DNA from: Planctomycetota bacterium
Lineage (GTDB): Bacteria; Planctomycetota; UBA8108; SXIK01
Length of the DNA: 64,000 nucleotides
Direction: 5' to 3'
NCBI GenBank assembly: GCA_965223265.1
Contig: OZ244999.1
Location: 7,968,001 to 8,032,000 of the forward strand
Numbering within the stretch: position 1 is the first letter of the stretch; each line of letters opens with the position of its first letter. The notes under the pieces are model-generated. The model saw nothing but the letters and a program-made list of their open reading frames with translations, ran no database searches and was not told where the DNA came from. Shown here piece by piece: positions 3,342 to 58,455 of this stretch. Made by a program: the position numbers and the translations under genes.

Positions 3342-3366
3342 GTGTCAGCTGCTCATCGCTTCGTCG

Positions 3367-4482: not shown

Positions 4483-4509
4483 TTCTGTGAAGGAAGCTGC
4501 CAGATATCG

Positions 4510-5502
4510 CTAAGTATAGCTAACGCGTGGGTCGACGACGCCGTAGAGCAGGTCGGCGATGAGCTGCGCCACGAGTGTCAGCATCGAAAACACCAGAGTC
4601 AGCCCCATGATTGTCGGGTAGTCGCGTCGCGTCAGCGACTCCAAAAAAAGTTGACCCATGCCCGGCCAACTGAAGATGAACTCGAGGATGATCGCGCCGC
4701 TGACAAGCGACGGCAGCGTCAAGCCGACCAGCGTCACAAATGGCACAAGGGTGTTGCGGAAGGCGTGGTGCCAGATCACCCGCGCCGGGCCAGCACCTTT
4801 GGCGCGAGCAGTACGGATGTAGTCTTGACGGATGACCTCCTCCATGTTCGCTTTGACGAAGCGTGAGAAGTAGGCGAGGCCACCGTAAGTGTAACAGACA
4901 AGCGGCAGCGCAAGGTGACGCAGTCGGTCGAACGCTTTGCCGACAAGCGAGAGCTCCTCGTAGTCCGAGCTGTAGAGTCCACCAGCGGGCAGTTGAAATC
5001 CCGTGCCCTCGAGCTTGACGTAGAAGAGGATCAACAAGAAGAGCGCCGCAACGTAGGATGGCAGAGAGTAGAGCATGTAGAGGATCACACTCAGAGCGCG
5101 CTCGTCGAAGCGTCCGCTGCGGACGGTGGCGAACAGCCCCATGGGGATGGACAGCAGGTACGTCAGAAAGAGCGACGCACCCGAGAGCAACAGCGTCGGA
5201 CCGATGTGATCGCTGATGATCTGAAGCACCGGCTGCTTGTAGGCGATCGAGTGTCCCATGTCGAGGCGCAGAAGATTTCCAAGCCAGACGAAGTAGGCTT
5301 GGTACCACGGTTTATCCAGTCCGTAGATCGCCTTTAGCCGCTCAAGATCCTCGGGACTGATCTGGCGACTGGGGTCGACCTCAGCCATGTCGAGCGTCAG
5401 CGCCGTTCCCGGCATGCTGCGGATGAGGCCGTAGATGACGAACGTGATCAGCAGGAGCGTCAGGCAGCCGATGGCGAGGCGCCGCAGAATGTAGATCAGC
5501 AT
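4510..5502 (-). CDS. Peptide ABC transporter permease (DppB/OppB type)
   Basis: YGLDKP..QY, DYIRTARAKG, IFSWPGMG, RDYP, DPR C-terminus. Confidence 0.95.
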   Translation of the reverse strand: MLIYILRRLAIGCLTLLLITFVIYGLIRSMPGTALTLDMAEVDPSRQISPEDLERLKAIYGLDKPWYQAYFVWLGNLLRLDMGHSIAYKQPVLQIISDHIGPTLLLSGASLFLTYLLSIPMGLFATVRSGRFDERALSVILYMLYSLPSYVAALFLLILFYVKLEGTGFQLPAGGLYSSDYEELSLVGKAFDRLRHLALPLVCYTYGGLAYFSRFVKANMEEVIRQDYIRTARAKGAGPARVIWHHAFRNTLVPFVTLVGLTLPSLVSGAIILEFIFSWPGMGQLFLESLTRRDYPTIMGLTLVFSMLTLVAQLIADLLYGVVDPRVSYT

Positions 5503-5577
5503 GAGGTCTTTTGCGTCACCGCCTCGGCTCGCTGCGCCGGCGCCCGGACAGGGGCGAAAGAGCGTGACTCTGAGCCG

Positions 5578-7470: not shown

Positions 7471-7797
7471 GTTCAAGAGCTCCAGTCGCAAAAGAGAGGA
7501 CGCGCGCCACTGGTTCGGAGCGCACGCGTCAGGTCGCGGAGCGGGAATCGAACCTCCACGATGAGAGCGAAGTCAGAGTCTATGGGACGGTTGTTGCCAA
7601 ATCAAGAAACGCCGCTCCACTCGACGAGATTCTACGTCGGTGCGCTTTCGACGACCGACAGCTCGCAACAAAGGTTGCCTGGTCTGACCCTGAGGAGCCC
7701 GCGGTTGCCGCTTGCCCGCGCCGGCGGCGTCGGGTATCAAAAACGCAGAGAAGAATCGACGCCGCAAAGAGCTTGTGACGAGAAAGGAAGTGATGAC

Positions 7798-20856: not shown

Positions 20857-22224
20857 TCAATCCGATTCTCGATCCTGCGGCACGCCGCCGAGCTGCACCT
20901 TGATCTTTAGCGACTCATCGCCGCGTTTGACGTCGAGAATCACCTCGGTCCCGGGATACAGCGGCCCGAAGTAAGCCTGCAGCTCGCCGAACGACCGGAC
21001 GTGCATGCCGGAGAGACCGTGGATGACATCGTTCGGCTGGATTCCCGAGAGTGAAGCTGGTCCGCCCGGCTCGACGTTCGAGATGCGAACACCCGCCTCC
21101 GGTTGATCGTCCGAGTCGACGACGACTCCCAGCCACGGGTGATCGCTTTCAAAAAGCGCCGCGATGATTTCGATGCTGCGATCGCCGCGCTCGATTCGCA
21201 CCGGGATTTTTGTGCCGGCCGGATAGGTCCCCAGGACTCCGAGGTAACGATTGCGCGTGGTCACCTTCTCGCCTGCGATCCGGATGATGCGATCGCCGGC
21301 GACGAACCCGAAGCGCTCCGCGGCCGACCCGGCGGTGACCTTGACGATCGGCAGACCGTGGCGCTGGTTCGTTCGACGCATACCCACGCGCAGTCCATTG
21401 ATCTTACCGTGACGTACGAGACCACCTCCCGCACGTTTCAGAGGTTCTAAGAAGCGCTGCACTTGGTTGCTGGGGATGGCGTAACCGATTCCTGAATTGA
21501 TCCCGACGCCGTACGGGTTCTCGATTTTGCCGTTGATGCCGACGACCTTGCCGTCGAGGGTCAACAGGGGCCCGCCAGAGTTTCCAGGATTGACAGCAGC
21601 GTCGACCTGGATCGCGTCGGTGTACGCTTCGGAGTAGCGATGCAGCGCGCTGACGATTCCCGTCGAAGCTGCCGGTTCGTAGTCGGGCGGCGACTCCGGC
21701 AGAAAGAGTTCGCGTGAGCCGACAAGAAACGGATCGCCAAGCGCGATGACGCGATCGCCAACCTCGAGGGCGTCGGAGTCGCCGAACTCAAGTGCTGGGA
21801 CTCCGGGTTCACCGTCCAGTTTGAGCAGCGCGAGGTCGCCGCCGGGGAAGTGTCCGACGACGGTCGCCTGCATCTCACGACCACCTCGCAGTTGAACTTC
21901 GACCCGACCCACGAGGACGTTCGGATCTCCTTGCGAGACGACGTGCTCGTTCGTGAGAACGTAGCCCTCTTCCGAGATCACAAAACCGGAACCGCCCTGA
22001 ATGAAGACGAAGCTCTTCGCGGCGCGCTCGATCGTGGCGCGCATCTCCTCTTCTAGGCGACGCAGATCGCCCAGGTCGCCGATTTTCTGATCGCGCTCGA
22101 CCTCCACCGCTTGCAAGCATACGGTTGGTGGCGCGAGACAAGCCGGCGCCAGCAGCGCGGCGGCGTGCAACACCGCTACCCAGTAGCTCGCGGCGCGGCT
22201 TCGGATCGTGGTCGGCGGCGTCAC
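20857..22224 (-). CDS. HtrA/DegP-like serine protease with two PDZ domains (catalytic triad intact)
   Basis: LTNEHV (His), DLALL (Asp), NPGNSGGPL (Ser), two PDZ-like segments, signal peptide. Confidence 0.92.
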   Translation of the reverse strand: MTPPTTIRSRAASYWVAVLHAAALLAPACLAPPTVCLQAVEVERDQKIGDLGDLRRLEEEMRATIERAAKSFVFIQGGSGFVISEEGYVLTNEHVVSQGDPNVLVGRVEVQLRGGREMQATVVGHFPGGDLALLKLDGEPGVPALEFGDSDALEVGDRVIALGDPFLVGSRELFLPESPPDYEPAASTGIVSALHRYSEAYTDAIQVDAAVNPGNSGGPLLTLDGKVVGINGKIENPYGVGINSGIGYAIPSNQVQRFLEPLKRAGGGLVRHGKINGLRVGMRRTNQRHGLPIVKVTAGSAAERFGFVAGDRIIRIAGEKVTTRNRYLGVLGTYPAGTKIPVRIERGDRSIEIIAALFESDHPWLGVVVDSDDQPEAGVRISNVEPGGPASLSGIQPNDVIHGLSGMHVRSFGELQAYFGPLYPGTEVILDVKRGDESLKIKVQLGGVPQDRESD

Positions 22225-23249
22225 GGTTTCTCTCCTAAGGCGATTTCCAGCTCGAGGATTTTTTCCTGTCGCTTCACCTTGACCTGCACGACGTCGCCCA
22301 CTTCGTGGGCTAGGACCAGTGCTTTCAGATGGTAGAAGTCCCTCACCGCCTCGCCGTTGATTTCGAGAAGGATGTCATCGGCGATGACGCCAGCCTTTGC
22401 CGCCGCACCGCCTTCGACGACCCGCCCGACGTGCGAGCCCTCCGGGACCTCCTTGCCGATCGAGATGACGCCGAGCATAGGGGGTTTGATGTTCTTTCCT
22501 TCGCGCAAGCGCGGCAGAATCCGCCGCAAAGTCTTCACGGTCGTACCGAATCCGACGCCGGAGTTGATGCCCCATTGGGGTTGGTGATGACCGACAAAGC
22601 AAGCGATGCCGACGAGCCGCCCCTCCAGGTCGATCAACGGTCCGCCGACGTTTCCGTAGTTGAGCTTGGCGTCGGTCTGGAACGCTCGGCCAGCGTTGCG
22701 CCCGAGCGCGCTCACGATGCCTCGCGTCACGGTGGTGCTGCGGGGATCCGGCGAGCGGCCGACCGCGAACACGATTTGTCCGGCCCCGAGACCCTTGGAG
22801 TCGCGCCATGGTTCGAACGACGTGGGCTCTTGCGCGTCGCCCGGCAGCTGTTTCGCTCGCAACAGCGCGACATCGTCCTGTGCACTCACGGCCAGCACCT
22901 CGGCGCTCGAGGTTTCGCCGCTTGCGAACGTCACACTGAGAGACTCGAGCTCTCCGACGACGTTGTAGAAACTCGTCAGGATGTGCCCGCCACCATCGAT
23001 GATGAAGCCGGTGACCGGGCCGTCGGGTCGGCGAAAGTAAGACCGTGCCTCGCCGCCGCCGAGAACCTCGCCGATGCGCGCGGCGGGCAGATCGGTGCCC
23101 TCCCTTCGCTCGATCTGAATCGAAACGACCCGCTGCTCGACGCCGGCCAGAAGCTCAGCGACGCTGGTCGGGGCATCAATGGGAGTACCGAAAGTCGGGT
23201 GCAGTGGGAGTAGAACCCCGACTAGGGTGAGCGTCAGTATCTTCCCCAA
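22221..23249 (-). CDS. HtrA-like trypsin+PDZ protein, predicted inactive
   Basis: LTSFYNV (no His), NYGNVGGPL (Ser to Val), one PDZ, signal peptide. Confidence 0.85.
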   Translation of the reverse strand: MGKILTLTLVGVLLPLHPTFGTPIDAPTSVAELLAGVEQRVVSIQIERREGTDLPAARIGEVLGGGEARSYFRRPDGPVTGFIIDGGGHILTSFYNVVGELESLSVTFASGETSSAEVLAVSAQDDVALLRAKQLPGDAQEPTSFEPWRDSKGLGAGQIVFAVGRSPDPRSTTVTRGIVSALGRNAGRAFQTDAKLNYGNVGGPLIDLEGRLVGIACFVGHHQPQWGINSGVGFGTTVKTLRRILPRLREGKNIKPPMLGVISIGKEVPEGSHVGRVVEGGAAAKAGVIADDILLEINGEAVRDFYHLKALVLAHEVGDVVQVKVKRQEKILELEIALGEKP

Positions 23250-24358
23250 AGTTGAATCTCCATGCTGCGCTCTTCTTCGTTCCGTTTCAGCTTGAGCGTC
23301 AGTTTGTCTCCAGGTTTCTTGCCGCCGAAGATTGTGCGGAACTCCTGCGTCGACGTGACTCTTCGATCGTCCGCCTGCTGGATCACGTCGCCTGGCTCAA
23401 GCCCGGCGCGCGATGCAGGACTGTCCGGAACAATCCTAGTGACTCTGACGCCGAGTTTTTCCTCGGCCGCCAGCTCGACCCCTAGATAGCTCAGTGAGTC
23501 GTTTTTGCTCTCCTGATCAAACCTCTTGTCGCCGCTGGCAGCCAGTAGGCTTGGCTTGAGGATGTCGACCGGCACCGCAGCTGCCAGCCAACGGTTCGGT
23601 GAGTAGTTGAGAGTGATCACGCCGAGCAGCTCGCCGCGTGCGCTCACCAAGGGTCCACCGTCCATGCCGTTGTTGACTGGAGCGCTCGTTTCGATGACAC
23701 GGCCGATGTACGTCGACTCTCCTTGCGTCTCGCGAAGGGAGAAGAGACCGCTGATGACTCCCGCCGACATGGCAGCCTGGTCGTCCTTTTGAATGCACTC
23801 GAACGCGTTGCCGAGGGTGTAGACCGGCGCGCCGAGAGCGATGGCGGTGGAATTCCCCAAGCTGAGGTAAGGCAGGTCGCCGCCGCCTTCTCCGGAGCGC
23901 TCGACTCGCAGCAAGGAGAACTCAGTTGCCGATTTGGTTTCGATCAGTTTGGCGCTGACGACTTGTCCACCTTGTAGATAGACGCGAATGCGGCGCGCCT
24001 TTCCGGGGACCACGGTTGTCGAGGTGAGGACCAGGCCCTCTGGTGACACAACCGTTCCAGTGCCGAAGAAAGAGAACTCAGAGCCGCCTGTCCCCGGGGC
24101 GCGGCAGGTGACACCGACGACTGCTGGCGACACATAGGCGTAAACTCGCACGGCCGGCGAACGCTCCGCGGCCGGGAGAGCGTCACGAGCATGGACTATG
24201 ACGGCGAGAACGAGCGCGGCGAGCACGTGGAGCCGCCGGCGCCGGCGAGAGATCAGCGTTTGGCGAGCGATCTTGATGGCGCACTGTCCTTTCTTGCGTC
24301 GCGACTGCCGCAGCGCGAGGTGCGCATTCATCCTGAAGTCTGATGGCTTCGGCGTCAA
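23234..24358 (-). CDS. HtrA-like trypsin+PDZ protein, predicted inactive (start may be ATG 24331 or later)
   Basis: LTSTTVV (no His), TEFSLL, NNGMDGGPL (Ser to Asp), one PDZ. Confidence 0.85.
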   Translation of the reverse strand: MTPKPSDFRMNAHLALRQSRRKKGQCAIKIARQTLISRRRRRLHVLAALVLAVIVHARDALPAAERSPAVRVYAYVSPAVVGVTCRAPGTGGSEFSFFGTGTVVSPEGLVLTSTTVVPGKARRIRVYLQGGQVVSAKLIETKSATEFSLLRVERSGEGGGDLPYLSLGNSTAIALGAPVYTLGNAFECIQKDDQAAMSAGVISGLFSLRETQGESTYIGRVIETSAPVNNGMDGGPLVSARGELLGVITLNYSPNRWLAAAVPVDILKPSLLAASGDKRFDQESKNDSLSYLGVELAAEEKLGVRVTRIVPDSPASRAGLEPGDVIQQADDRRVTSTQEFRTIFGGKKPGDKLTLKLKRNEEERSMEIQLWGRY

Positions 24359-24662
24359 CCAGACAGGGGCCGGCGGCCTCGGCTATCTCGCAGCTCGATG
24401 GGGGTCCACATGCACGGTGAGCGGCGACAGTGCGCTGTGTTGGGGGCGATCATCGGTCGGATGATTTCGATCCGAACCGACGCCGCGAGGGGGTTTGGAC
24501 CCCTGTCGAAGCTGGTAGGCTGGAAGGTCGTCGCGAAGACGCGCGCCGTCACGACATCGGCGACGCACAGGCGACGACATTAACCGGATGTGGGACGGCC
24601 GATTTTTCCGTGTGATCGGGCGTCCTTCGCCCCACTTGGTGCAGCGGTGTGCGATCGCGAGG

Positions 24663-24678
24663 TGGCACGGCGATTGCA
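24663..24678 (+). promoter_or_regulatory. Sigma-54 (-24/-12) promoter, consensus match
   Basis: TGGCACGGCGATTGCA matches TGGCACG-N4-TTGCW exactly, within a 1.1-kb intergenic region. Confidence 0.6.
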
Positions 24679-25220
24679 GACTCAACGGCAGCGTTAGCTT
24701 TCGACCGACATTCTGATCCGCTGAGCCACTGGGGCCTGGCGGAACGGCCCAAGCCGCGGGCGGGAATCGGGCCACTTGTTCTCGTCCGTGGCGTCTACCG
24801 ATTCGTGATACCCAGACCATGCGTGAAACCGCGAAACGCGCCGGCGACCTGAAACCCGCCGATCCGTCGCCCGTCCGCGAGGCCGATGGTAAGGACGCTG
24901 TGCAGCCGGATCTCGAGCCGCAGGAGCCTGAGGCCCCGAGTCTCAAACCGCAAGACCTCGAGCCTGAAAACGAGAGAGAATCGGCGTTGCCGACGACGCG
25001 GCGAGCGCGTTCATCCGGTCAACCTCGGCGACCCGCAGGATGATCTTCTCGCCACGAACCTTCGGCTTCGGGCTGTCTGCGTGCCTGCGGAGCATTTGCG
25101 AGCGCACTCGCCGGAACTCGTTCGATCGGTTCGACGTAACCGACAACGGACCCGAGTCGGCCCTCGGCAATTTGTCCCTCGAGGCCGTACGTTCGCGCAA
25201 GGGATCCGAAGCAGCCACCC

Positions 25221-25270
25221 TTTTAGGATGTTATTCATCCGAAAATATCTGCCACTAAGATGCAGAATAT
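25221..25270. promoter_or_regulatory. Tandem AT-rich palindromes, candidate enhancer (UAS) sites
   Basis: TTTTAGGATG-N5-CATCCGAAAA followed by ATATCTGC..GCAGAATAT; about 70-120 bp upstream of the predicted sigma-54 start site. Confidence 0.4.
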
Positions 25271-25314
25271 CCGAACCGGCGCGTCTCGCACTCGGAAACG
25301 GTCCGCTGAGCGTA

Positions 25315-25330
25315 TGGCCCCGAAGTTGCA
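25315..25330 (+). promoter_or_regulatory. Sigma-54 (-24/-12) promoter upstream of the 25449 gene cluster
   Basis: TGGCCCCGAAGTTGCA, GG-N10-GC with TTGCA; about 120 nt before the ATG. Confidence 0.6.
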
Positions 25331-25448
25331 TATTTCGCGACGCTTCGGGCGAGACCCAGCGGTCGCGCAGGGACGGCGATAACGGAGTCGACGGCGGTGG
25401 CGACGCAGCGCGAGGCTCTTCCGGAGTTCGTCGTAGGAGGACGAAGAT

Positions 25449-26219
25449 ATGCGGCGCCTTGTATCAATTACGCACTTCCCGTGTCTCGTCATGCTTCTTT
25501 GGGTCGTCGGCGTCACGCCGACGTCGAGCGCCGAGGACGCGCCGGCGACCGCGACGATAAAGAACGATCCTTACTGCGTGGTCCAGATCGGCAGCGACGC
25601 AGTCGAGATCGTCCGCAAGTCGGAGCTTCCCGCGCTCAAGAAGAAGGTGGCGGAGGCGAACAAGCAGGCGCTGAAAGCCTACTCGGAAGCCCGGAAAGCA
25701 GCGAAACGAGCGAAAGAGAAATTCTCCGCGGCGAGGCCTCGAGCGAAGAAGGTGAAGGTACTCTCGGCGTCACTTAAGACCGAGTCGGAGGCGAAAAAGC
25801 TCCGCGATGCGACCCTCGCGAAGGTCAATGGATACGTGGTCGTTCTGGCTGGTCTCGAGCTCCACGTCCTGCGAAAGTCAGAGGTCTTCGATCTCAAGAA
25901 GGACCTCAAGCAGCGAGACGACGACGCGGTCGCGTCGTACAAATCCGCGCAGGCCGCCGCGAAGCAGAGTGGTGAGAAGTTCAAGCGGAAGAAGCCGACC
26001 CAAACGAGGGTGAAAGTCCTGGCTTCGGGTTTCCGGACAGAAACCGACGCGGCGCGTAAGGCCGAGGCGCTGCTCGAGAAGAACAGGAAGCTCAAACCCT
26101 CCGAGGGCCTCGAGCGCGTTCTCGAGTCCGACGGCGACCGTGCGGACAGTCGCGAAGAGGGCGAGGAGGATCAAGACGAAGAGGATGAAGAAACCTCGCC
26201 TGGAGAGAACGGTGAGTAG
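25449..26219 (+). CDS. Hypothetical exported Lys-rich protein with two tandem ~80-aa repeats and acidic tail
   Basis: AGGAGG RBS, signal-like N-terminus, repeat Y.VV..G.....RKSE...LKK.......Y..A..AAK...EKF....P....VKVL.....TE..A. Confidence 0.8.
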   Translation: MRRLVSITHFPCLVMLLWVVGVTPTSSAEDAPATATIKNDPYCVVQIGSDAVEIVRKSELPALKKKVAEANKQALKAYSEARKAAKRAKEKFSAARPRAKKVKVLSASLKTESEAKKLRDATLAKVNGYVVVLAGLELHVLRKSEVFDLKKDLKQRDDDAVASYKSAQAAAKQSGEKFKRKKPTQTRVKVLASGFRTETDAARKAEALLEKNRKLKPSEGLERVLESDGDRADSREEGEEDQDEEDEETSPGENGE

Positions 26220-26282
26220 CCTCGAGCGACGAGGCGTCGGCCGTCGAATTCTCCGGCTCTCCAGTGAGTTCATAGTGGCTCG

Positions 26283-27119
26283 ATGAGCACCACTTCTTCA
26301 CCAGCTCCAGCGATGTTCACTGACGCAGGTGCTGAACCCCTCGTCGCGGTGGCGCTCCACGACGGTCATCAAGTGCGCGACGCGCTCGTCGAGCACCTCG
26401 CGGTCCACGCTGCGGCGCGCTTTCGGGAGGAGGATCCGTTCACGCGGGAATGGACGACCGTTGCCTCTACGCGCATCGTGGGTCTTCGATCCCGTTTCGA
26501 AGTGGACCTCAACCGTCCGCGAGACAAGGCCGTGTACCTGACGCCCGAAGCGTCGTGGGGGCTTCGGGTGTGGAGCAGGGAGTGCCCGTCGGACGAGGTG
26601 GAACAGTCGCTCGCCCAGTATGACGAGTTCTACAGGAGAGCTGGCGAGCTCTTTACCGCGATGGCGTCGATTCACGACCGTTTCGTCGTCTTCGACCTCC
26701 ACTCCTACAATCACCGTCGGAACGGCTTCGACGCGCTTCCCGCGCCAGCGAACGAGCACCCCGAAGTCAATCTCGGCACGGCGACGATGGACCGCGAGTT
26801 ATGGGCTCCTGTGGTCGATCGCTTCGTCGCGGAGCTGCGCTCCCGGCCGTTCATGGGCAGGCGAATCGATGTTCGCGAGAACGTCAAGTTTTTCGGTGGA
26901 CACTTCGCCCGATGGGCGCACGAGAATTTCGCCGAAAGCGCATGCGTCCTCTCTATTGAATTCAAAAAGATGTTCATGGACGAGTGGACCGGTGAACCCT
27001 ATCCTGACCACATTGAAGCGGCACGCGACGCGCTCGCCCGCGCCATCCCCGGAGTACTCCAGGAACTCGACCGAATTGACGCATCGCGAGCGCCAGGGAC
27101 TTCCCACTACAACGGTTGA
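26283..27119 (+). CDS. N-formylglutamate amidohydrolase family protein
   Basis: ALHDGH, REEDPFT, SRFEVDLNR, DLHSYNHRR, NLGT, ENVKFFGG, IEFKK.FMDEWTG. Confidence 0.88.
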   Translation: MSTTSSPAPAMFTDAGAEPLVAVALHDGHQVRDALVEHLAVHAAARFREEDPFTREWTTVASTRIVGLRSRFEVDLNRPRDKAVYLTPEASWGLRVWSRECPSDEVEQSLAQYDEFYRRAGELFTAMASIHDRFVVFDLHSYNHRRNGFDALPAPANEHPEVNLGTATMDRELWAPVVDRFVAELRSRPFMGRRIDVRENVKFFGGHFARWAHENFAESACVLSIEFKKMFMDEWTGEPYPDHIEAARDALARAIPGVLQELDRIDASRAPGTSHYNG

Positions 27120-28998
27120 CGGGGCCATCGAGACGATCCGCTCCGGCCTGGCGAACGGCGTTCCCGTGCGCTGTCGTCTTCCTGAAAAGGGCGTGCTCGT
27201 CATCGATCGACCGCTTCCTTTCCTCGTCGTGCACCGAGTGCCACCGGCGAATGACGATCGAGGAACGGATCGGCTGATTCGATCGGAGGCGTCGTACCTC
27301 GTTGCCCCCGGAGACCGCTCGCACCATCGGTGGGTGTCTCGCCTCGTCCGAGAGGTCGTGCGAGAGCTCGCATCACAATTCGACGGGTGTCTCCTCGTCG
27401 AGCTGTGGTCAGATCCGACGGGCGATGCGTCTTCCAACGCATCGAAAGATCTCCCCCTGGAATTCCAGATCAAGGTCGCCTCCTCCCTCGCCCGGAATCG
27501 CGAAACGTGGTCGGTGCTCGAGCAAGCGTTCGGCAAAATTCGCGTCCTGCAGAGGCGAGCGATCGTGACGACCTCGGCAACCGCTCGCATCACTTCTGGG
27601 AAGTGCGCACCGCTCCTCACTGCGCGCCAGGCGGCGGATCTCTCGTGTACGGTCGCGGGAGTGGTCGTGCCGCCCGTCTACCGCGCGCCGGGCACCGATG
27701 AAGTCTACCCCCTCGTCCTGCGGACGCTTCGTCGCCAGCTTTCGCGCGCTCTGAAGCGCGGCTTTCATCAGTTCTGCCACGAGTCGACGCGCACGGCACC
27801 CGCGAGCTTCCTCGCTCTGGGTCGCCGTGGATTTCTGCGCGCTGTCGTCGACGTCGACGAACAAGTCGCGAAAGTGAGCGACTCTTTCGATTTCCTCCTC
27901 AGCGTCACCCCGGTCGATGTGAACGCGGTGTGGCGCAAGTTCGATCGAGAGCATTTCGAGGTCGAGCCGAAGTTTACCTATCGCCCGCTCTCGCAAGATC
28001 CGGTGCGCCTCAAGCGAAAGCTGTTCGAGATTCCGACCGAACGGATAGAAGACCCTGTTCTCGAGGGGATCTACCGAGAGAAACAACTCGAGCTTGACCG
28101 AAAGCTGACAATGCTCCTTGAGAGGTCGACGTCGAAGTTCCTCTACAGCAGCATTCAACTCTTCGAGGCGCCGAGCCCGGAGCTGGTCCTGCTGGCGCAG
28201 GAGATCCTGCGGTCGATTCCTCCCAAGAGCCGCGATGAGAACAAACGAGAATCCCTCGAAGCCGAGCCCTTTGCTGCTGCGGCGCGAAAGGAGATCGATC
28301 AATACCGGAGCCGAGTGCCCGAAATGAGCTCGAAGGTCGAGGTCCGCCCCGACCTCGCCTCGACGATCATGGTCTCGAAAGGAAACCTGCTCATCGGCGG
28401 AAGCGCGCGAGTGCCGGTTTCGCGGGTCGCGGCCCTGCTCCAACACGAAGTTGGCACCCACGTTGTGACCTACATCAACGGAAAGGCCCAACCGCTCCGT
28501 ATGTTCTACGGAGGTTTCGTCGGATACGACGAGCTCCAGGAAGGGCTCGCCGTTCTCGCCGAGTACCTCGTCGGTGGAATGAGTCGGCCGCGACTCAGAA
28601 CGCTCGCCGCTCGCGTCGTTGCTGGACACTACCTGGTCGATGGTGCCTCGTTTGTTGAGGCGTTTCGAGCGTTGAACCACGAACACCGCATCCCGCAGCG
28701 ACAATCGTTCGACATCGCGGTACGAATGTACCGCGGCGGGGGCTTCCTCAAGGACATCGTCTACTTGCGCGGATTTCAGAGCGTGCTCGAGTACATTACG
28801 AGCGGCGGGGACCTCGAACCTTTGTTCGTCGGCAAGATCGCACTGCGCCACCTGCCGGTAGTTCGAGAGCTGCAGCTCCGAGGAGTCTTGCGAGAGACGC
28901 CGCTTCGACCCAGTTTTTTGGATCTTCCACAGGCCGATAAGAGACTCGGGCGCCTCCGCTCGAGCGGCTCGGTGCTCGACCTTATCCAGACGATTTGA
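27076..28998 (+). CDS. QEGLA-motif / DUF1704 zinc metallopeptidase (MATCAP-like gluzincin)
   Basis: LLQHEVGTH (HExxxH), LQEGLAVLAE, R.YRGGG..KD.VYLRG. Start placed at TTG 27076; the ORF track extends the frame to 26620, over the previous gene. Confidence 0.88.
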   Translation: MTHRERQGLPTTTVDGAIETIRSGLANGVPVRCRLPEKGVLVIDRPLPFLVVHRVPPANDDRGTDRLIRSEASYLVAPGDRSHHRWVSRLVREVVRELASQFDGCLLVELWSDPTGDASSNASKDLPLEFQIKVASSLARNRETWSVLEQAFGKIRVLQRRAIVTTSATARITSGKCAPLLTARQAADLSCTVAGVVVPPVYRAPGTDEVYPLVLRTLRRQLSRALKRGFHQFCHESTRTAPASFLALGRRGFLRAVVDVDEQVAKVSDSFDFLLSVTPVDVNAVWRKFDREHFEVEPKFTYRPLSQDPVRLKRKLFEIPTERIEDPVLEGIYREKQLELDRKLTMLLERSTSKFLYSSIQLFEAPSPELVLLAQEILRSIPPKSRDENKRESLEAEPFAAAARKEIDQYRSRVPEMSSKVEVRPDLASTIMVSKGNLLIGGSARVPVSRVAALLQHEVGTHVVTYINGKAQPLRMFYGGFVGYDELQEGLAVLAEYLVGGMSRPRLRTLAARVVAGHYLVDGASFVEAFRALNHEHRIPQRQSFDIAVRMYRGGGFLKDIVYLRGFQSVLEYITSGGDLEPLFVGKIALRHLPVVRELQLRGVLRETPLRPSFLDLPQADKRLGRLRSSGSVLDLIQTI

Positions 28999-29050
28999 CG
29001 ACGATGATAGCCACGACGAAGCCACCGACAGAGACGAAAGTGAGAGAACT

Positions 29051-30094
29051 TTGCGCATAGGATTCTTCATCAACGACATCTCTACGGAGCAGACGACCTA
29101 CACGACGACACGGTTGGCCTTGGCAGCCACGAATCGGGGCCACGAGGTCTGGTATATCGGCGCGAGCGACTTTGCCTACGACCCCGATGATTTCCTTAAG
29201 GCTCGCGCTCGGTCCGTACCGCGAAGCAAGTACGCGACGACTGACGTGTATCTCAAGGATCTTCGAGGTCCGAAGGGAGTAGAGGAGCGCATCACGGTGG
29301 ACGATCTGGACGTCCTGCTCCTCCGCAACGACCCGTCCACCGATGCCGTGAGTCGCCCCTGGGCACAAAACGTTGGAATTATCTTCGGCCAGTTCGCCAT
29401 GCGCCGCGGCGTCATCGTACTGAACCATCCCGCGACGCTCGCTCTCGCTATGAACAAGATGTATTTCCAGCTTTTCCCCGAGGAGGTACGACCCACGACG
29501 CTAGTGACGAAGGATCGTCGGGAGATTACCGCGTTCGCCAAGGAGTACGGCAAGGTCGTCCTGAAGCCGCTTCAGGGGTCCGGTGGAGCGAACGTGTTCC
29601 TCGTTCGGCCCGAGGATATCCCGAACCTGAATCAGATGATCGACTCGGTCTCGCGCGACGGATACGTCATCGCTCAGGAGTACCTCGCGGCGGCCGAGCA
29701 CGGCGACACGAGGCTTTTCATGATGAACGGTCGGCCCCTCCGCTACCGGGGACGCTACGCGGCCTTTCGGCGATTGCGTTCCGAAGGAGACATGCGCTCG
29801 AACATCCACGCCGGGGGGACCAAGGCGAAGGCAGAGATCGACGACACCGTATTGAACATCGCGGAGATCGTTCGGCCGAAGCTCGTCGCCGACGGGATGT
29901 TTCTCGTTGGGCTCGACATCGTGGGGGAAAAGCTGATGGAGATCAATGTGTTCAGCCCGGGGGGGCTCGGGAGCGCGCAGAAGTTCGAGAATGTCAAGTT
30001 CACCGGAGCAGTGATCGATTCGCTCGAGCGCAAGGTCCAGTACGCGCGGTTCTACAAGCGACAATTCAACAACGACGAGATGGCGACACTTTGA
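29051..30094 (+). CDS. Glutathione synthetase (GshB)-like ATP-grasp ligase
   Basis: LLRNDP, NKMY, VLKPL.GSGG, QEYL, GDTR, RSNIHAGG, VGLDIVG, EINVFSPGG. Confidence 0.88.
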   Translation: MRIGFFINDISTEQTTYTTTRLALAATNRGHEVWYIGASDFAYDPDDFLKARARSVPRSKYATTDVYLKDLRGPKGVEERITVDDLDVLLLRNDPSTDAVSRPWAQNVGIIFGQFAMRRGVIVLNHPATLALAMNKMYFQLFPEEVRPTTLVTKDRREITAFAKEYGKVVLKPLQGSGGANVFLVRPEDIPNLNQMIDSVSRDGYVIAQEYLAAAEHGDTRLFMMNGRPLRYRGRYAAFRRLRSEGDMRSNIHAGGTKAKAEIDDTVLNIAEIVRPKLVADGMFLVGLDIVGEKLMEINVFSPGGLGSAQKFENVKFTGAVIDSLERKVQYARFYKRQFNNDEMATL

Positions 30095-30341
30095 TCGGCA
30101 CTGTTGGTCCAGCTGCCGACCAAAGCGCGAAGACACCGCACGCGCGTATGGGATTTCGAACGTGTTGCGGCCAAGGATCCGAGCAGTCATCGAGGTCCCG
30201 AAAGTGCCGAAGGGGCTGCTTCGTACACCCTCGAGGCCGACCGTTTTTCTGTCGGGGGAAATCACAGCTTGATGATGGGTTCCATCCGAAATAGACCATG
30301 TACTTCCGCATGCAGTGGAATTCACGGTCAGGAGCCCTCTG

Positions 30342-31781
30342 ATGCTGATTCGCGCCTACTTGGCTGCCCGTAGAGCAGAAGACCGCAAGCGATTGCGTGC
30401 ATTGCTACGTGCCGAATCGGATGTAAGTCTGCAGTCGATGAGATCGAAGTCGCCCGTCTGGGAGAGGCTGATCGCGCAAAGGGTCGACCTATTGGTCGTC
30501 GACCTGCGCCTCGTTCCAGAGCCGGTCGAGAACAGCCTCGCGACTTTGGCGGATCTACCGGACGCACCGGGCGTCGTCGTGTTGTCGTCGAACGAGGAGT
30601 CGGAGCTTCACGCTCGTCTCCTCGCGGCCGGCTGCCTTGCCGTGCTGGATACTTCGCTCGAGGATACGCTCCTGAAGGACGCCCTCACGACCTTGATCGA
30701 ACGTCTTCGCGGCGAAGCGAACGCCGCGCTCACCCCGCCGCAACTCGACGAGCAGCCGCGACTGAGTGATTTCGTCTCGGAGAGCCCGGCGATGGTGGCG
30801 TTTCTGCAGGTGGTCCGTCGTGTGGTGGCCGCCGATGCCACACTTCTACTCATCGGAGAAACCGGTGTGGGAAAGGAGCGCCTCGCTCAGGCGATGCATG
30901 CCGAAAGTCCGAGATCCGCCGGCCCGTTCGTCGCTGTGAATTGCGGGGCCATTCCCGAGGCGCTTCTCGAGAGCGAGCTTTTCGGGCACGAGGAGGGCGC
31001 GTTCACTGGGGCGACACGCACCCGCCGCGGTTGGTTCGAGCTGGCGCATCGTGGAACGGTGTTCCTCGATGAGATTGGCGAGATGCCGCTCCATTTGCAA
31101 GTGAAGCTCCTCCGAGTCCTTCAGACGCGGGAAGTTGTGCCAGTGGGGTCGGAGAAGTCCATCAAGGTCGATGTCCGGGTCATGGCAGCGACGAACCAAG
31201 ACCTCGAACGCGGAGTGAAGGAAAAGAACTTTCGCGCCGACCTTTTCTACCGCCTGAGCGTCGTGACGCTTGAGATTCCCGCCCTTCGCGATCGAAAAGA
31301 CGACATCCGCACGCTCGCACAGAGGTATGTCGAGTACTTTCAGTCGCGCTTCGCGACGGGTGTCCAGGGGCTCTCCGATGAGGCGATGTGCGACCTCGAG
31401 GAATACGACTGGCCCGGAAATGTGAGAGAACTCGTCAATGTCATCGAGCGTGCGATGCTTCTTTGTCCCGGGACGCGCATCACTCCCGAGTATCTTCCTG
31501 ACGGCATTCGGTCGAGGAAGACGGCGATCGGGAATCAAGAACTGGTCGCTGCGAGCGTCGTCGTCCCGCTGCCGAAGAATTGGAAGAAGCGTCCGTACCG
31601 AGAGGTTCGGAAAGAGGTCATGCGCTCACTCGAGCGAGTTTACTTCTCGGCGCTGCTCGAGGAGACGGCCGGGTGTATCGGGAAGACTGCCGAGCGCGCC
31701 GGTATGAATCCTCGAAACCTTTTTGAAAAGCTGAAGAACTGCGGGCTTCGGAAAGAAGAGTTTCGAACCTCAACACGCTGA
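30342..31781 (+). CDS. Sigma-54-dependent transcriptional activator (NtrC-type) with atypical receiver
   Basis: GETGVGKE, ESELFGHEEGAFTGA, FLDEIGE, RADLFYRL, WPGNVREL, C-terminal HTH; GGAG RBS. Confidence 0.92.
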   Translation: MLIRAYLAARRAEDRKRLRALLRAESDVSLQSMRSKSPVWERLIAQRVDLLVVDLRLVPEPVENSLATLADLPDAPGVVVLSSNEESELHARLLAAGCLAVLDTSLEDTLLKDALTTLIERLRGEANAALTPPQLDEQPRLSDFVSESPAMVAFLQVVRRVVAADATLLLIGETGVGKERLAQAMHAESPRSAGPFVAVNCGAIPEALLESELFGHEEGAFTGATRTRRGWFELAHRGTVFLDEIGEMPLHLQVKLLRVLQTREVVPVGSEKSIKVDVRVMAATNQDLERGVKEKNFRADLFYRLSVVTLEIPALRDRKDDIRTLAQRYVEYFQSRFATGVQGLSDEAMCDLEEYDWPGNVRELVNVIERAMLLCPGTRITPEYLPDGIRSRKTAIGNQELVAASVVVPLPKNWKKRPYREVRKEVMRSLERVYFSALLEETAGCIGKTAERAGMNPRNLFEKLKNCGLRKEEFRTSTR

Positions 31782-31983: not shown

Positions 31984-32748
31984 GTGAACACGAAAGCAAG
32001 ACTGCCATGGGCTGAAGAGGCTGCCGGACGCATCGTCGAGCGCCTGGGGCGTAGCGGTCGGCTGTCGGTGCTCACAGGCGCAGGTGTCTCGGCGGAAAGT
32101 GGCATCGCGACGTTTCGCGATGCGGGGGGACTGTGGGAGCAGCACTCCTTGGAGGACGTCGCGACGCCCGAGGGGTTCGCGCGTGACCCCGAACTGGTGC
32201 TCAGCTTTTACAACGCGCGCCGACGCGGGCTGCACAAGGTCGAACCCAATCCGGCGCACAGAGCGCTGGCGCAGCTTGAGGCGATGCTCGGGGATCGTTT
32301 CGCGCTCATCACGCAGAACATCGATGATCTGCATGAACGCGCTGGCTCGGAGCGAGTGCTCCACATGCACGGGGAGCTCTTCAAGGCGCGCTGCGTCGAC
32401 TGTGCTGCTGTCAGCGCCTGGGCCGCGGATATCGTTCTCGGTACGAGCTGCAGCGACTGCGGCGCTCAGTTGCGCCCTCATATCGTCTGGTTCGGCGAGA
32501 TGCCCTTCCACCTCGAACGCGAGATACCTACGGCGGTTGGGGCCGAGGTCTTTGTCAGCATCGGCACCAGCGGCACGGTCTATCCCGCGGCCGGATTCGT
32601 CGGCGAGGCCAAGGCGTGCGGTGCGCTGACGGTCGAGCTCAACCTTGAGCCGAGTGAGAACGCCCACCTCTTCGAGCTGCAGATTGAGGGGCGAGCAGGT
32701 GAGAGACTGCCGCAGCTTGTCGAGGCGATCGCATCGCTGCTGCGTTGA
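31984..32748 (+). CDS. cobB: NAD-dependent protein deacylase (class III sirtuin)
   Basis: GAGVSAESGIATFR, FYNARR, TQNIDDLHERAG, HG, two CxxC, RPHIVWFGE, GTSG.VYPAA. Confidence 0.93.
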   Translation: MNTKARLPWAEEAAGRIVERLGRSGRLSVLTGAGVSAESGIATFRDAGGLWEQHSLEDVATPEGFARDPELVLSFYNARRRGLHKVEPNPAHRALAQLEAMLGDRFALITQNIDDLHERAGSERVLHMHGELFKARCVDCAAVSAWAADIVLGTSCSDCGAQLRPHIVWFGEMPFHLEREIPTAVGAEVFVSIGTSGTVYPAAGFVGEAKACGALTVELNLEPSENAHLFELQIEGRAGERLPQLVEAIASLLR

Positions 32749-44276: not shown

Positions 44277-44726
44277 GTGAGACGAAGTGTGCCGTTTTTC
44301 CGCGTCGCGGGAATCGTTTGTTTGGGCGTCTTGATCGCAGCGCCGTTCGCAGCGCTGGAGCGCGGCCCGATCGCCGCGGCAGACGCCGCCGACAAAGGGC
44401 GCGTCTTCGAACAGCGCGTCTACTTCTGCAATTCGGGTCTGCTGGACGATCTCCACGCGCGCTTTCGAAATCACACGAACTATCTCTTCGTCAAGCACGG
44501 CATGAGCCTCATCGGCTACTGGACGCCCGTCGACGAGAAGGACACACTGGTCTATATCCTCGCGTATCCAAGCCAGGAGGCGCGGGAGAAGTCGTGGCAA
44601 GCGTTCCGGGATGATCCGGTTTGGAAAGCCGTGTTCGCCGCGTCACGTGAGAAAGCCGGTGGTGCGCTCGTCAAGAAGGTCGAGTCGACGTTCCTACGCC
44701 CCACCGACTACTCGCCGATCCGGTAG
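44277..44726 (+). CDS. NIPSNAP family protein
   Basis: FEQRVY, LHARFRNHT, KHGM..IGYW, LVYILAYPS, W.AF..DP.W, PTDYSP; AAGGAG RBS before GTG 44277. Confidence 0.9.
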   Translation: MRRSVPFFRVAGIVCLGVLIAAPFAALERGPIAAADAADKGRVFEQRVYFCNSGLLDDLHARFRNHTNYLFVKHGMSLIGYWTPVDEKDTLVYILAYPSQEAREKSWQAFRDDPVWKAVFAASREKAGGALVKKVESTFLRPTDYSPIR

Positions 44727-45027
44727 GGCGCCCCCGGCGGGGTTTGAGTCGAATGTTCGGCCTGCGACCTTTTTGCGGTTGGCCCGTTGCCGTCGCGGTT
44801 TAGTCCCGCACCTCAGCGCCGGGGAATCGAGCTGTCGAACTCGCGGCAGGCTCAATTCTGGGGTCGCCAACCAAGAGGGACCGACGAGCGATGGTAGACC
44901 GGTGCCCTTCATTCGGCGATTTCCCGGTTTCGGTCGATGCGTGTGGCATAATCGGTGGGGAGAGGTCAGAGCCGGCGCGGGAACGCCCGAGCTCGAAGGT
45001 AAGCGAGGACGCGGAAAGCCGGAAACT

Positions 45028-48000
45028 ATGCACAGTTGTTGTCGTTTTCGCTTTGTTCCAACGCGGACGATCGCTCGTCCCACCAAACGGTGCGTCAGGC
45101 TGCTCGAGGCGCTGACCCTGCTCCTGTGGCTGGCGAGCGTTCGATCGTCTGCGTTCGCCGACGAGACGTTCTTCGTCTCGTTCGGTAGCGAGTGGCGGTT
45201 CTTTCGAGGTCTTGAGGAACCCACACCCGAGTCGCCTGCGGCCTGGCGCAGCGTTGATTTCGACGACGCAGCATGGGACGTCGGTGCAGCGCCGCTGGGT
45301 TACGGTTTCGACGAGCTTGGAACCGACCTCAACGCGTCCGAGCCGCCGATGGAGGGGAACTACCTCTCCCTCTACGTGCGGCAAAGATTCAGCCTCTCGG
45401 AGCTCGATCGCATTGAGTCGTTGGAGGCGCGCGTCATCGCCGACGACGGTGCCATCGTTTGGCTCAACGGCACTGAGATCGCTCGCATCAATGCGCCCGG
45501 CGATCCAGGCGACCACATCCCATTCGATGAACGGGCCGCGCGCGCGCAGCTGAATCGGCGGGCGCACATCTTTCCGCTCGAAGACTTTCGTGATCTGATC
45601 GACGAAGGCGCGAACGTCCTTGCGGCCCAGGGCCTCAATCGATCGCTGACAAGCAATGACATGCGCCTCGCCATCGAGCTCGTCGACCGCTTCGGACCGG
45701 ACCGCACGCCGCCGGAGCTTGCCGGCGTCGTACCCGTGCCGCAGACGACGACGCGAACTCTCCAGCTCGTGCACGTCGACTTTGGCGAGCCAGTGAGCGG
45801 TGTCGATGCGCTCGATCTGCTGATGAACTCTGCACCGGCACTGAAGGTGCGATCCGATCCGAGCGGTCGTCACTATCGTTTCCTTTTCGCGCCGCCATCG
45901 CCGGGTGCCGTCGAGCTCGCCTGGGCGCTCGACCACTTGATTCTCGACCGCGCCGAAATACCGAACGCGTTCGCTGGCGGCAGTTGGAGCTACCGCTACG
46001 CGCCTGACGAGCCGTTGCCGGCGGTTGTCATCAGCGAGGTCAGCGCTGCCAGTGGCGCTCTCCGCGATGAAAACGGCGACGGCGCCGATTGGATCGAACT
46101 ACAGAACGTCGGCGATACGCTGGTCGACCTCGCGGGCTACGCGCTGAGCGACGACCCGGAGCGCCCCGATCGCTGGCGTCTGCCGACGCTACGCCTCGAG
46201 CCCGGCGCCTTTCTTCTCGTGCTTGCAACCGGCAAAGACCGAGCCGATCCCGCTGCGGAACTCCACGCCAGTTTTAAACTGGATCCCGATGGCGACTCCG
46301 TCTTCTTGTTTTCAAACGACGCGCCGCGACAGCTCGTCGCCGCGCTGCGTGATTACCCCGAGCAGCGCGGTCAACTCTCTTACGGTCGCAAGCGAAGTGG
46401 TGAACTCTCCTACTTCGCAACCCCCACGCCGGGCTCGCCCAACGTCGAGGAGGATGCGATCGATGGCGGCTTCGTCAGCGATCCCGAATTCAGCGTCGAG
46501 CATGGTCACTTCGAGGAGGCTTTCAGCGTTGAGCTCAGTTGCGCCACGACAGACGCGGAACTCTTCTACACCTTGGACGGCAGTTGGCCGACCCCGGAGA
46601 GCGCCCGATACTCCGGGCCTATCGAGATTGACGGCGAGCCTCGACGCGGTGCCGCTGTCCTGCGTGCGACGGCCTTCAAGTCGGGAATGGTTGCCTCGCG
46701 TACGATCACGCGCACCTTCATTTTTCCGACGCACGTGCTGACACAGCCCGCCGACCCAGATGGTTTCCCCGGCACATGGCGCGGCGCGGCGCGCACGTTC
46801 TACGGCATGAGTGCAGCGATCGTGAATGATCCGCGCAACGCGGACCTTTTTCCGGAGGCGTTACTGGCGCTGCCGAGCGTCTCGATCGTCGCCGACGTCG
46901 AAGATCTCTTCGGCGGCACCGGCCTCTACTCGAACCCGACGAGTTCCGGCATCGACTGGGAGCGCCCTGGCTCCGTCGAATTGATCGACCCGACCGGGGA
47001 GGAGAGCTTTCAGGTCAACTGCGGCCTGCGCATCCAAGGCGGCGCCAGCCGCGGTCCCAGCAATTCGCCGAAGCACAGTTTTCGCCTACTCTTCAAATCG
47101 GACTACGGGCCGAGCCGGCTGTCGTTTCCTCTCTTCGGGCGTAGCCGCGTCGAAGAGTTTGATACGTTGATCCTGCGTGCCGGCTACAACAACAGCTGGA
47201 TTCACAGTGACACCTCGCAGAATCGACGCGCCACCTATCTACGCGACCAGTGGGCTCGCGACACGCTGCGCGACATGGGCCAGCCGTCGGCGCGTGGTCG
47301 CTTCGTCCATCTCTATCTCAACGGCCTCTACTGGGGGATCTACAACCTCGTCGAACGTCCGAGCGGCCCGTTTGCCGCCGCCCATCTCGGCGGCAGGCGT
47401 GAGGATTGGGACGCTCTCAACTCTGCGAGCCCCGTCGATGGTGATTCCGCGGCGTGGAGGCAGCTGACGAGCGACGCGCAGGCGGCAACGGGCGAAGACA
47501 AGGAATACTTCGCGATTCTCGATCGTCTCGACGAGACGAACTTCATCGACTACATGTTGACGAACTACTATTGCTCCAACTCCGACTGGCCGCACCACAA
47601 CTGGTATGCAGCGCGACGTCGGGTCGTCGGCGCCGGGTATCGATTCTTTAGCTGGGACGCCGAACGTATCCTCGAAGGGCCGAACGAGTCGGCGGTCGGC
47701 CGCAACGACTCGAACTCGCCCGGCGTGATCTCGGTCCGACTGCGCCAACATGCGGAGCATCGCGTGCGCTTCGGCGATCGGGTGCAGCGCCACTGTTTTG
47801 GCGGCGGCGCCCTGACGGCGGCGGCGGTTGCAGCGCGCCTGCGCAGGCGCGCCGACGAGGTCGAGGCGGCCATCGTCGCCGAGTCAGCGCGCTGGGGAAC
47901 CTTTCGGCGCGAGAACGTACCGCTGACTTATCAGGAGAGCTGGCTGCCGGAGTTGCAGCGTCTTTTCGAAGACTATTTTCCCGTTCGACTTCCGGCCCTG

Positions 48001-58382: not shown

Positions 58383-58398
58383 TGGCACACCGTTCGCG
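58383..58398 (+). promoter_or_regulatory. Putative sigma-54 promoter for the second CotH gene
   Basis: TGGCACACCGTTCGCG, GG-N10-GC, about 60 nt before GTG 58456. Confidence 0.4.
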
Positions 58399-58455
58399 AC
58401 GTCTTCGCCGTCTTGCGGCGGCCTGACTGCTCGACGCCTTTGCCGTCGTCCCGGT

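Follow-up and report, generated by a model that had tools for sequence, protein, structure and literature searches.

An ATP-grasp ligase and two hydrolases form a conserved bacterial cassette with a possible role in small glutamyl peptide turnover

A 64-kb stretch of contig OZ244999.1 from a Planctomycetota bacterium (assembly GCA_965223265.1, positions 7,968,001 to 8,032,000; hereafter the window, with all coordinates counted from its first nucleotide) carries a cassette of three genes, which encode a member of the N-formylglutamate amidohydrolase (FGase) family, a peptidase related to the tubulin-tail carboxypeptidase MATCAP (DUF1704), and an ATP-grasp ligase resembling the glutathione synthase GshB. 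This triad alone is the conserved unit, co-inherited across many bacterial phyla, and its ligase is not an ordinary GshB. As a tentative reading, which we judge slightly more likely to be wrong than right, we propose that the cassette runs a cytoplasmic make-and-break cycle of a small glutamyl peptide that is tied to osmotic or ionic homeostasis and, in this organism, switched by sigma-54. A first-pass annotation of the same DNA had described a sigma-54-controlled module adding and removing residues on a protein tail or storage peptide, possibly under nitrogen or stress control. Of its observations, the genes and the -24/-12 motif were recovered, whereas the palindromes were poorly reproduced; of its interpretation, the triad, the enzymes and the distance from GshB stand, whereas the membership of a lysine-rich gene, the protein-tail substrate, nitrogen control and a role of palindromes lack support or are corrected here. 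In the literature we found neither a described function for the triad nor a paper on it; an earlier account in Iyer et al. 2009, on amidoligases, is possible.

The triad, its fusions and its enzymes

A profile of 26 peptidase homologues, run against contigs of one genome per species, returned at least 597 confirmed stretches, which puts the cassette in at least about 600 species representatives; in the protein collection, relatives of the peptidase number more than 3,500. All locus counts below refer to the best 79 of these stretches (numbered with the prefix L), whose record titles name at least 15 phylum-level groups. By BLAST of the window proteins against the open reading frames (ORFs) of these loci, genes for FGase, DUF1704 peptidase and ligase lie within 3 kb in 68 of the 79, and in 44 they keep the strict order FGase, DUF1704, ligase on one strand. 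The claim that this neighbourhood recurs in bacteria is thus borne out across many phyla. The exceptions are contigs that are too short (L050, L072), a locus in which peptidase and ligase form one ORF of 993 amino acids (L062), one in which the ligase lies beyond the activator (L031), four without a detectable FGase (L016, L059, L063, L066), one without a ligase (L055), and two with the peptidase alone (L038, L079). The triad is also annotated on replicons of Shinella and Sinorhizobium meliloti. Measured against the window proteins, the ligases of the loci show a median identity of 67 %, the FGases of 53 % and the peptidases of 44 %. Clustering the ORFs of the 79 loci revealed no conserved gene of at least 70 codons travelling with the triad as a candidate substrate.

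Natural gene fusions join the same partners. A set of 49 longer ligase relatives contains 45 clusters in which FGase and ligase are fused into about 625 amino acids (PF05013 plus the GSH-S domains), three DUF1704-ligase fusions (one of them with 7 members, of which one is on a 1.65-Mb contig), and one protein that is something else. The remaining pairing occurs in Vibrio sp. HDW18, where an annotated coding sequence of 663 amino acids, named for the QEGLA motif, consists of a true FGase domain followed by a DUF1704 domain, and in Photobacterium sp. DA100, where an FGase-DUF1704 fusion has a ligase-like gene in front of it. All three pairwise fusions therefore exist, which strengthens the case, already made in the first-pass annotation, that ligase and hydrolases are functionally coupled. 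Chance adjacency of the three genes was considered and rejected on the count of 68 loci together with the fusions.

The ligase gene (29051-30094, plus strand) encodes a GshB-like ATP-grasp protein of the PRK12458 subfamily with the GSH-S_N and GSH-S_ATP domains (PF02951, 45.2 bits; PF02955, 174.7 bits) and the lid loop of that architecture. It exceeds the cut-off of NF009110, the PRK12458 model, which is itself named 'glutathione synthetase' (463.6 against 408), and falls below both GshB equivalogs, TIGR01380 (197.1 against 299.05) and NF003573/PRK05246 (214.7 against 272); E. coli GshB, run as a control, scored 464.4 and 496.2, respectively. A ligase search of 1.84 billion cluster representatives gave, among the 150 matches listed, 103 proteins of 310-372 amino acids; 92 of these (11 with partial alignments were dropped) plus one fusion made up a set of 93 nearest representatives. 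NF009110 was the best match for every one of them, six passed its cut-off, and none reached a GshB cut-off, the highest scores being 223.0 and 217.4. In a FastTree phylogeny of 184 sequences, the window ligase and 66 locus ligases at least 60 % identical to it fell into one clade of 74 tips (support 0.70), and E. coli GshB stood at least 3.1 substitutions per site from every tip; as this is the one GshB in the tree, it is the hidden Markov model cut-offs that carry the non-GshB argument. The earlier statement that the enzyme is not an ordinary glutathione synthase is supported by these scores.

Nevertheless, the closest solved relative of the ligase is E. coli GshB (E = 1.4e-36, compared with 1.6e-07 for RimK), and the lid-loop R..R.N..GG (E. 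coli residues 225-240) and E-x-N motifs of GshB align with it. Because GshB is the closest solved relative and the lid-loop residues are kept, we infer that the enzyme works on a small acceptor by chemistry like that of GshB. Additional paralogues of the ligase (54-59 % identity to that of the window; up to three ligase genes in a row) occur in L008, L012, L044, L050, L071, L004, L020 and L059, with a second peptidase gene in L044, L050 and L071; the extra ligases of L004, L008, L012, L020, L044 and L071 fall inside the cassette ligase clade and that of L059 outside.

The peptidase (27076-28998, plus strand) starts at TTG 27076, as in a database entry of 640 amino acids, and its gene overlaps the FGase gene by 44 nt. 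The PF08014 match (301.8 bits, cut-off 27, E = 8.1e-90) covers only the C-terminal 60 % of the protein and defines a gluzincin carboxypeptidase domain of the MATCAP/DUF1704 type (27802..28998), in which HEVGTH (H457, E458, H462) and QEGLA (E489) are invariant among the 26 homologues. Sequence search of the PDB gave no match for the peptidase, and it was the fold search alone that did: with Foldseek, its model matched human MATCAP (7z5g, E = 7.6e-10, TM score 0.70 on the target, 20 % identity). Score, HExxxH motif with downstream Glu, and gluzincin fold together place the protein in the MATCAP/DUF1704 family, and the bacterial enzyme is probably a carboxypeptidase acting on acidic C-termini. 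It narrowly misses the cut-off of TIGR02421, the hypothetical equivalog named for QEGLA (329.1 against 338.65). We take PA3697 of Pseudomonas aeruginosa to be a member of that family. PA3697 is reported, through a citation in PMC8070244, to affect expression of fhp.

The first 240 residues of the peptidase (27076..27801) have no Pfam match and are conserved among homologues; modelled alone, they gave a pLDDT (predicted local distance difference test) of 89.5. A fold search returned weak matches (TM score 0.35-0.51) to nucleoside phosphorylases, first by E-value, to PghP (3a9l), YndL (5onj), FGase (2q7s), and to carboxypeptidase A. Profile comparison by hhalign with 67 FGase sequences reached a probability of 71.5 % (E = 3.6e-5, 187 columns), with ELWS in place of the FGase motif DLH140S and with E226 not kept. 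Mainly because of this alignment and of the Vibrio fusion, which has a true FGase at the same position, we assign the region, as a new proposal, to a degenerate, probably non-catalytic FGase-like alpha/beta domain.

The separate FGase-family protein (26283-27119, plus strand; PF05013, 71.3 bits against a cut-off of 28.9) is probably active, judging from residues that are at least 95 % conserved in 67 sequences (H26, E49/E50/D51, R71, E73, D75, D138, H140, R146, E226, K229 and E234). PDB sequence search found no match for it, no NCBIfam family matched at E <= 0.01, and no hut genes are among the window ORFs; without a curated match it is not a recognisable HutG, the N-formylglutamate amidohydrolase of histidine utilisation. 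All three enzyme assignments of the first-pass annotation hold at the level of family. None of the three cassette enzymes has a signal peptide, as judged by eye from their N-termini.

Osmotic and ionic context

Neighbours were surveyed by unbiased clustering of all locus ORFs of at least 70 amino acids, with representatives named by Pfam and NCBIfam; the resulting counts describe these 79 loci only. MscS-type channels were found in 23 loci, MgtE in 14, CorA and CNNM (PaeA/CorC-like) in 10 each, and a permease of about 750 amino acids closest to K-Cl cotransporters in 8. Of the 79 loci, 31 have at least one of these ion genes no more than 8 kb from the cassette; the distance is at most 1.5 kb in 26 loci and at most 300 nt in 20, and in L052 MgtE lies between the peptidase and ligase genes. 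ABC (ATP-binding cassette) transporters, although a far larger gene family, were found in 5 loci only.

Other recurrent neighbours include a Ser/Thr kinase with a double zinc ribbon (7 loci), which lies at most 1.5 kb from the cassette in L037, L041, L051, L053 and L058 and farther away in L003 and L066; in the first four of these, mostly planctomycete, it follows immediately 3' of the ligase on the same strand, and in L058 it is on the opposite strand. A DgcN-like protein (DUF1611; 5 loci) and a protein of about 795 amino acids that ends in an MftE-like creatininase-family domain (6 loci) are paired in L017, L026, L032, L062 and L068, and partly in L048, which are of Acidobacteriota type. This pair is a possible source or sink of N-acyl-glutamate.

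Published expression data point in the same direction as the ion genes. In RNA sequencing (RNA-seq) of Photobacterium damselae at 1 % versus 3 % NaCl, the reported values include a 38.4-fold increase for RS17020 (a 'glutathione synthase' of 1029 nt, 342 codons), 27.5-fold for RS17025 (a QEGLA protein) and 9.1-fold for RS17015 (DUF413); the three genes are adjacent on chromosome II, and the authors took RS17020 to be GshB (PMC10308900). By its position and length, as given there, RS17020 is more likely the cassette ligase than GshB. The ribosomal protein S6 glutamate ligase RimK is also reported among the 20 most induced low-salt genes of this organism (PMC10308900), and is thus a second glutamate-adding ATP-grasp enzyme with a low-salt response like that of the cassette genes. 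As to the nitrogen or stress control suggested in the first-pass annotation, nothing points to nitrogen, whereas osmotic or ionic stress gains support from the neighbours and from this RNA-seq study.

Gene layout, promoter and activator

In the window, five co-oriented genes on the plus strand span 25449-31781, as had been noted before: a lysine-rich protein, the FGase, the peptidase, the ligase and a sigma-54-dependent activator. They are separated, in this order, by 63 nt, an overlap of 44 nt, 52 nt and 220 nt, with no intrinsic terminator-like site within the 63-, 52- or 220-nt gaps, and co-transcription is predicted. The activator gene, 220 nt behind the ligase gene, may also have its own promoter.

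Upstream, the sigma-54-type -24/-12 element reported in the first-pass annotation is present on the plus strand at 25315-25330 (TGGCCCCGAAGTTGCA). It agrees with the sigma-54 consensus TGGCAC-N5-TTGCW at 10 of 11 specified positions, with GG and GC correctly spaced, and predicts a transcription start near 25340, about 108 nt 5' of the ATG at 25449. The looser pattern TGGC-N7-TTGCW has 3 matches in the window against 0.63 expected, and 4 of 100 shuffles gave at least 3. A second and better match, TGGCACGGCGATTGCA at 24663-24678 (plus strand, 11 of 11), lies 786 nt 5' of the lysine-rich gene in a 1.1-kb stretch (24359-25448) whose only ORFs are 24383-24946 and 24943-25218 on the minus strand and 24819-25043 and 25040-25258 on the plus strand. 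These small ORFs were dropped as genes, their translations being of low complexity or non-coding in appearance. TGGCACGGCGATTGCA could be a second promoter with a long leader, the promoter of a small gene, or a chance match.

Palindromes at enhancer distance, which the first-pass annotation had described, were not convincingly reproduced: the repeat search found no strong inverted repeat between 25200 and 25315, and the best one (14 nt, 86 %) pairs 24999-25012 with 25100-25113. Direct repeats, by contrast, are present: three copies of ATCCGAA on the plus strand (25204, 25237 and 25269, within 25204..25275) are spaced by 33 and 32 nt and lie 47-112 nt 5' of the -24 element. ATCCGAA occurs in 9 copies in the window, three of them in this cluster; triple clusters of any 7-mer within 80 nt number 7 in the whole window, and 2 are regularly spaced. 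In L052, whose activator is 52 % identical to that of the window, ATCCGAA occurs about 127 nt 5' of an 11/11 -24/-12 site. The triple repeat is therefore a candidate upstream activating sequence (UAS) for the activator, and a better enhancer candidate than the palindromes. A fourth copy at 30284-30290, within the 220-nt gap and 25 nt 5' of the GTG with which the activator gene starts, is a possible site of autoregulation.

The activator itself (30315-31781, plus strand) is a sigma-54 enhancer-binding protein by its AAA+ domain (Sigma54_activat, PF00158, 234.8 bits) and the GAFTGA motif in its translation, which is preceded by a degenerate receiver-like domain and followed by a weak HTH_8. It is not a two-component response regulator of the NtrC type proper: Response_reg scores 18.9 against a cut-off of 30.2 and TIGR01818 (NtrC) 334.5 against 558.6, the acidic pocket is missing from the receiver-like domain, and six activator proteins have D, S, E, Y, G and D where the phospho-acceptor should be. 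Given this degenerate domain, a histidine kinase is unlikely as input. Full-length orthologues (43-52 % identical, residues 9-487) lie beside or near the cassette in L052, L060, L025, L008 and L031, and the neighbouring activator of L070 matches only partially (37 % over residues 39-488). Where the orthologue is the divergent neighbour, -24/-12 motifs occur in L052 (11/11), L031 (10/11) and L008 (9/11); L025 and L070, in both of which the activator lies downstream, have none. Upstream of the cassette, motifs of at least 10/11 exceed their frequency in the rest of the loci about 9-fold, a ratio that rests on 3 matches only. A sigma-54 promoter with a dedicated activator, as first suggested, is thus plausible from the orthologous activators beside the cassette in 5 other loci and the motifs in 3, and the cassette would be under sigma-54 control here. 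Homologues of bacterial enhancer-binding proteins (bEBPs) lie within 8 kb of the cassette in 15 of the 79 loci, and sigma-54 control appears to be a lineage-specific layer, seen in the PVC (Planctomycetes-Verrucomicrobia-Chlamydiae) group and in Myxococcota.

The first gene after the promoter (25449-26219, plus strand) lies outside the conserved cassette. Its product of 256 amino acids contains 12.9 % Lys, rising to 17.8 % between residues 36 and 215. The N-terminus is hydrophobic and resembles a signal peptide, and the protein also has two repeats of 86-90 amino acids (36 % identical, E = 4e-15) and an acidic tail with 19 Asp/Glu among the last 40 residues. No Pfam family scored above cut-off, no homologue was found in the 79 loci, a search of 5.8 billion proteins at near lengths returned only the protein itself, and the ESM Atlas gave no usable match. 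The first-pass annotation had counted this gene as part of the module; with a sole copy in the protein database and an exported appearance, it looks rather like a lineage-specific secreted orphan. As a substrate of the cassette, the acidic-tailed protein was rejected on the same two grounds.

A Pfam scan of 44 window ORFs found no member of the glutamate-cysteine ligase (gshA) family, in agreement with the first-pass annotation; as the window is 64 kb of a contig of 9.18 Mb, this has little bearing on the genome. No RNA family, and hence no riboswitch lead, came out of Rfam scans that covered the entire window and 18 of the 79 loci. Directly 3' of the activator lies a gene for an NAD-dependent protein deacylase of the Sir2/CobB type (31984-32748, plus strand), of which no homologue was found near the cassette in the 79 loci. 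Three consecutive genes for HtrA/DegP-like trypsin-PDZ proteases (20857-24358, minus strand) are divergent from the cassette region, and two very large proteins of 1826 and 1282 amino acids (44611-50091 and 58141-61989, plus strand) combine CotH kinase, lamin-tail and chitobiase C-terminal domains.

A proposed cycle and its alternatives

The cycle that we propose would run in the cytoplasm on a small acceptor of glutamate type, such as N-acyl-Glu or gamma-Glu-X. With ATP, the ligase would convert the C-terminal carboxylate of this acceptor to an acyl-phosphate, the intermediate also used by GshB, and join an amino acid to it. The MATCAP-type enzyme would take the added C-terminal residue off again, and the FGase enzyme would cut the remaining N-acyl or gamma-glutamyl amide. 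Jointly, the three enzymes would set the level of a small glutamyl peptide in the service of osmotic and ionic (K+, Mg2+, glutamate) homeostasis, with the adjacent sigma-54 activator switching transcription in this organism. A more far-reaching version, which is speculative and in our view distinctly unlikely as a whole, would be a 'glutamate condensation valve', an ATP-driven cycle in which anions of the glutamate type are drawn from the free pool into a small N-acyl or gamma-glutamyl peptide and released again; along with MscS, Mg2+ transporters and K-Cl cotransporters, it would adjust both cytoplasmic osmolarity and the pool of K+/Mg2+ counter-ions; here MATCAP would descend from a small-peptide carboxypeptidase, and the pseudo-FGase N-domain would be a module of substrate recognition.

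Several points weigh against the proposed cycle. The data establish gene content, conservation, the fusions, the distinction from GshB, the ion-gene neighbourhood and low-salt co-induction in a distant variant; what the substrate is, which way flux runs, what the cassette does for the cell and how promoter and activator work are inferences. The promoter, the UAS and co-transcription are all predicted. Nor does the cycle explain the orphan gene that separates promoter and cassette. The ligase tree holds a single bona fide GshB, which serves as its root, and the high conservation of the ligase could equally reflect a conserved macromolecular substrate. Ion-gene neighbours are confined to the 31 loci, with none in the window itself or in the two rhizobial loci. 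The Photobacterium cluster is a distant variant, its peptidase being 28 % identical to that of the window, and RS17020 is at most a putative protein of the PRK12458 type. Finally, the eukaryotic relatives of the peptidase (DUF1704/MATCAP/TMCP) are described as tubulin-tail carboxypeptidases and deglutamylases (PMC10499314), that is, with protein tails as substrates.

This last point leads to the alternative closest to the first-pass annotation, in which the ligase adds Glu or another residue to a protein C-terminus, in the manner of RimK or TTL, for the MATCAP-type enzyme to trim off. Besides the activity described for the eukaryotic enzymes, the good fold match to MATCAP, the conservation of the ligase across phyla, a match of the RimK Pfam domain to the ligase (51 bits) and the acidic tail of the first gene product all speak for it. 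Yet the ligase is far under the cut-off of the RimK family TIGR00768 (67.9 against 143.4) and much closer to the small-molecule enzyme GshB, the 79 loci offer no conserved substrate gene of the size surveyed, and the protein with the acidic tail is an orphan that begins with what resembles a signal peptide; moreover, it is hard to see what an FGase-type amidohydrolase would do in tail editing, and yet 45 protein clusters join one to the ligase. Nothing thus directly supports a protein tail or storage peptide as the substrate, and we regard tail editing as rather unlikely.

That the ligase is a second genuine synthetase of glutathione or a close thiol analogue, with the hydrolases serving turnover of glutathione or gamma-glutamyl peptides, seems improbable to us. 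The name 'glutathione synthase' given by the NCBI pipeline, and likewise that of the PRK12458 model, suggests it, as do the conserved loop and Mg-binding motifs and an identity to E. coli GshB of about one-third over some 290 residues (an estimate from the alignment). Against this stand the curated GshB cut-offs, which the ligase and its 93 nearest representatives all fail and which the E. coli control clears by a wide margin, a close fusion with FGase of a kind unknown for GshB, and the presence of the cassette in many anaerobic or deep-branching groups, which to our knowledge are not known for glutathione. We give just as little credence to a pathway that breaks down or salvages an imported or recycled peptide (for example cell-wall or gamma-glutamyl), in which amidase and carboxypeptidase trim and the ligase joins again. 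Its logic would resemble that of the murein-peptide recycling enzymes AmpD, LdcA and Mpl, an ABC transporter follows the S. meliloti copy, and the window contains oligopeptide ABC transporter (Opp) genes at 1464-7491. The latter, however, lie 18 kb from the cassette on the other strand, the transporters that adjoin the cassette are mostly ion channels rather than peptide importers, and the three enzymes appear to lack signal peptides.

The cassette also matters for annotation. The ligase is routinely named 'glutathione synthase', which is misleading by the curated GshB cut-offs, and the peptidase 'flavohemoglobin expression-modulating protein', which is uninformative on its role as an enzyme. 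A fused and co-inherited non-GshB unit among osmotic and ion genes turns this annotation puzzle into a testable hypothesis, and tractable hosts such as S. meliloti, with its copy on pSymB, carry the cassette, as does the culturable planctomycete Kolteria novifilia (L047). The published 38-fold induction of 'GshB' at low salt in Photobacterium may need re-reading. In addition, the cassette allows the origin of the tubulin detyrosinase MATCAP to be considered in a prokaryotic setting.

Comparison with characterised proteins shows what is shared and what is particular to the cassette. E. coli GshB (PDB 1GSA/1GSH/2GLT) has the two-domain ATP-grasp architecture in common with the window ligase, and probably acyl-phosphate ligation too, but the latter exceeds GshB by about 30 residues, has insertions in the N-domain that binds the substrate, and is always paired or fused with two hydrolases. 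Human MATCAP/TMCP1 (KIAA0895L) and TMCP2 share PF08014, the HExxxH...E motif and the fold with the peptidase, whereas the bacterial protein, at 20 % identity to MATCAP, has an extra degenerate FGase-like N-domain, no tubulin, and a ligase and an amidohydrolase as genomic partners. With the QEGLA family TIGR02421 it shares the catalytic domain; the gammaproteobacterial forms inspected are FGase-DUF1704 fusions, 28-30 % identical and without a separate FGase gene. The poly-gamma-glutamate hydrolases PghP and YndL and the FGase 2q7s resemble the peptidase N-domain weakly in fold and profile, although its conserved His and Glu are lost. HutG (2Q7S) belongs to PF05013 as does the cassette FGase, which stands outside a histidine-utilisation context. 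The activator, in turn, shares the AAA+ domain with GAFTGA, the lid domain and the C-terminal helix-turn-helix with bEBPs of the NtrC family, but scores below every NCBIfam equivalog cut-off and has no adjacent cognate kinase.

At the level of the whole system, the closest parallels are cycles in which a small peptide is made and broken again. The mammalian N-acetylaspartylglutamate (NAAG)/beta-citrylglutamate cycle employs the RIMKLA/B ligases, the carboxypeptidase GCPII and aspartoacylase; N-acetylglutaminylglutamine amide (NAGGN) is a bacterial osmolyte made by an ATP-grasp enzyme, and glutathionylspermidine synthetase/amidase is another make-and-break pair. By analogy with these NAAG/N-acetylaspartate, glutathionylspermidine and NAGGN systems, the cassette would combine an ATP-grasp ligase, a metallocarboxypeptidase and an N-acyl-amino-acid amidohydrolase on one small peptide, although its enzymes have no sequence orthology to theirs beyond the ATP-grasp superfamily.

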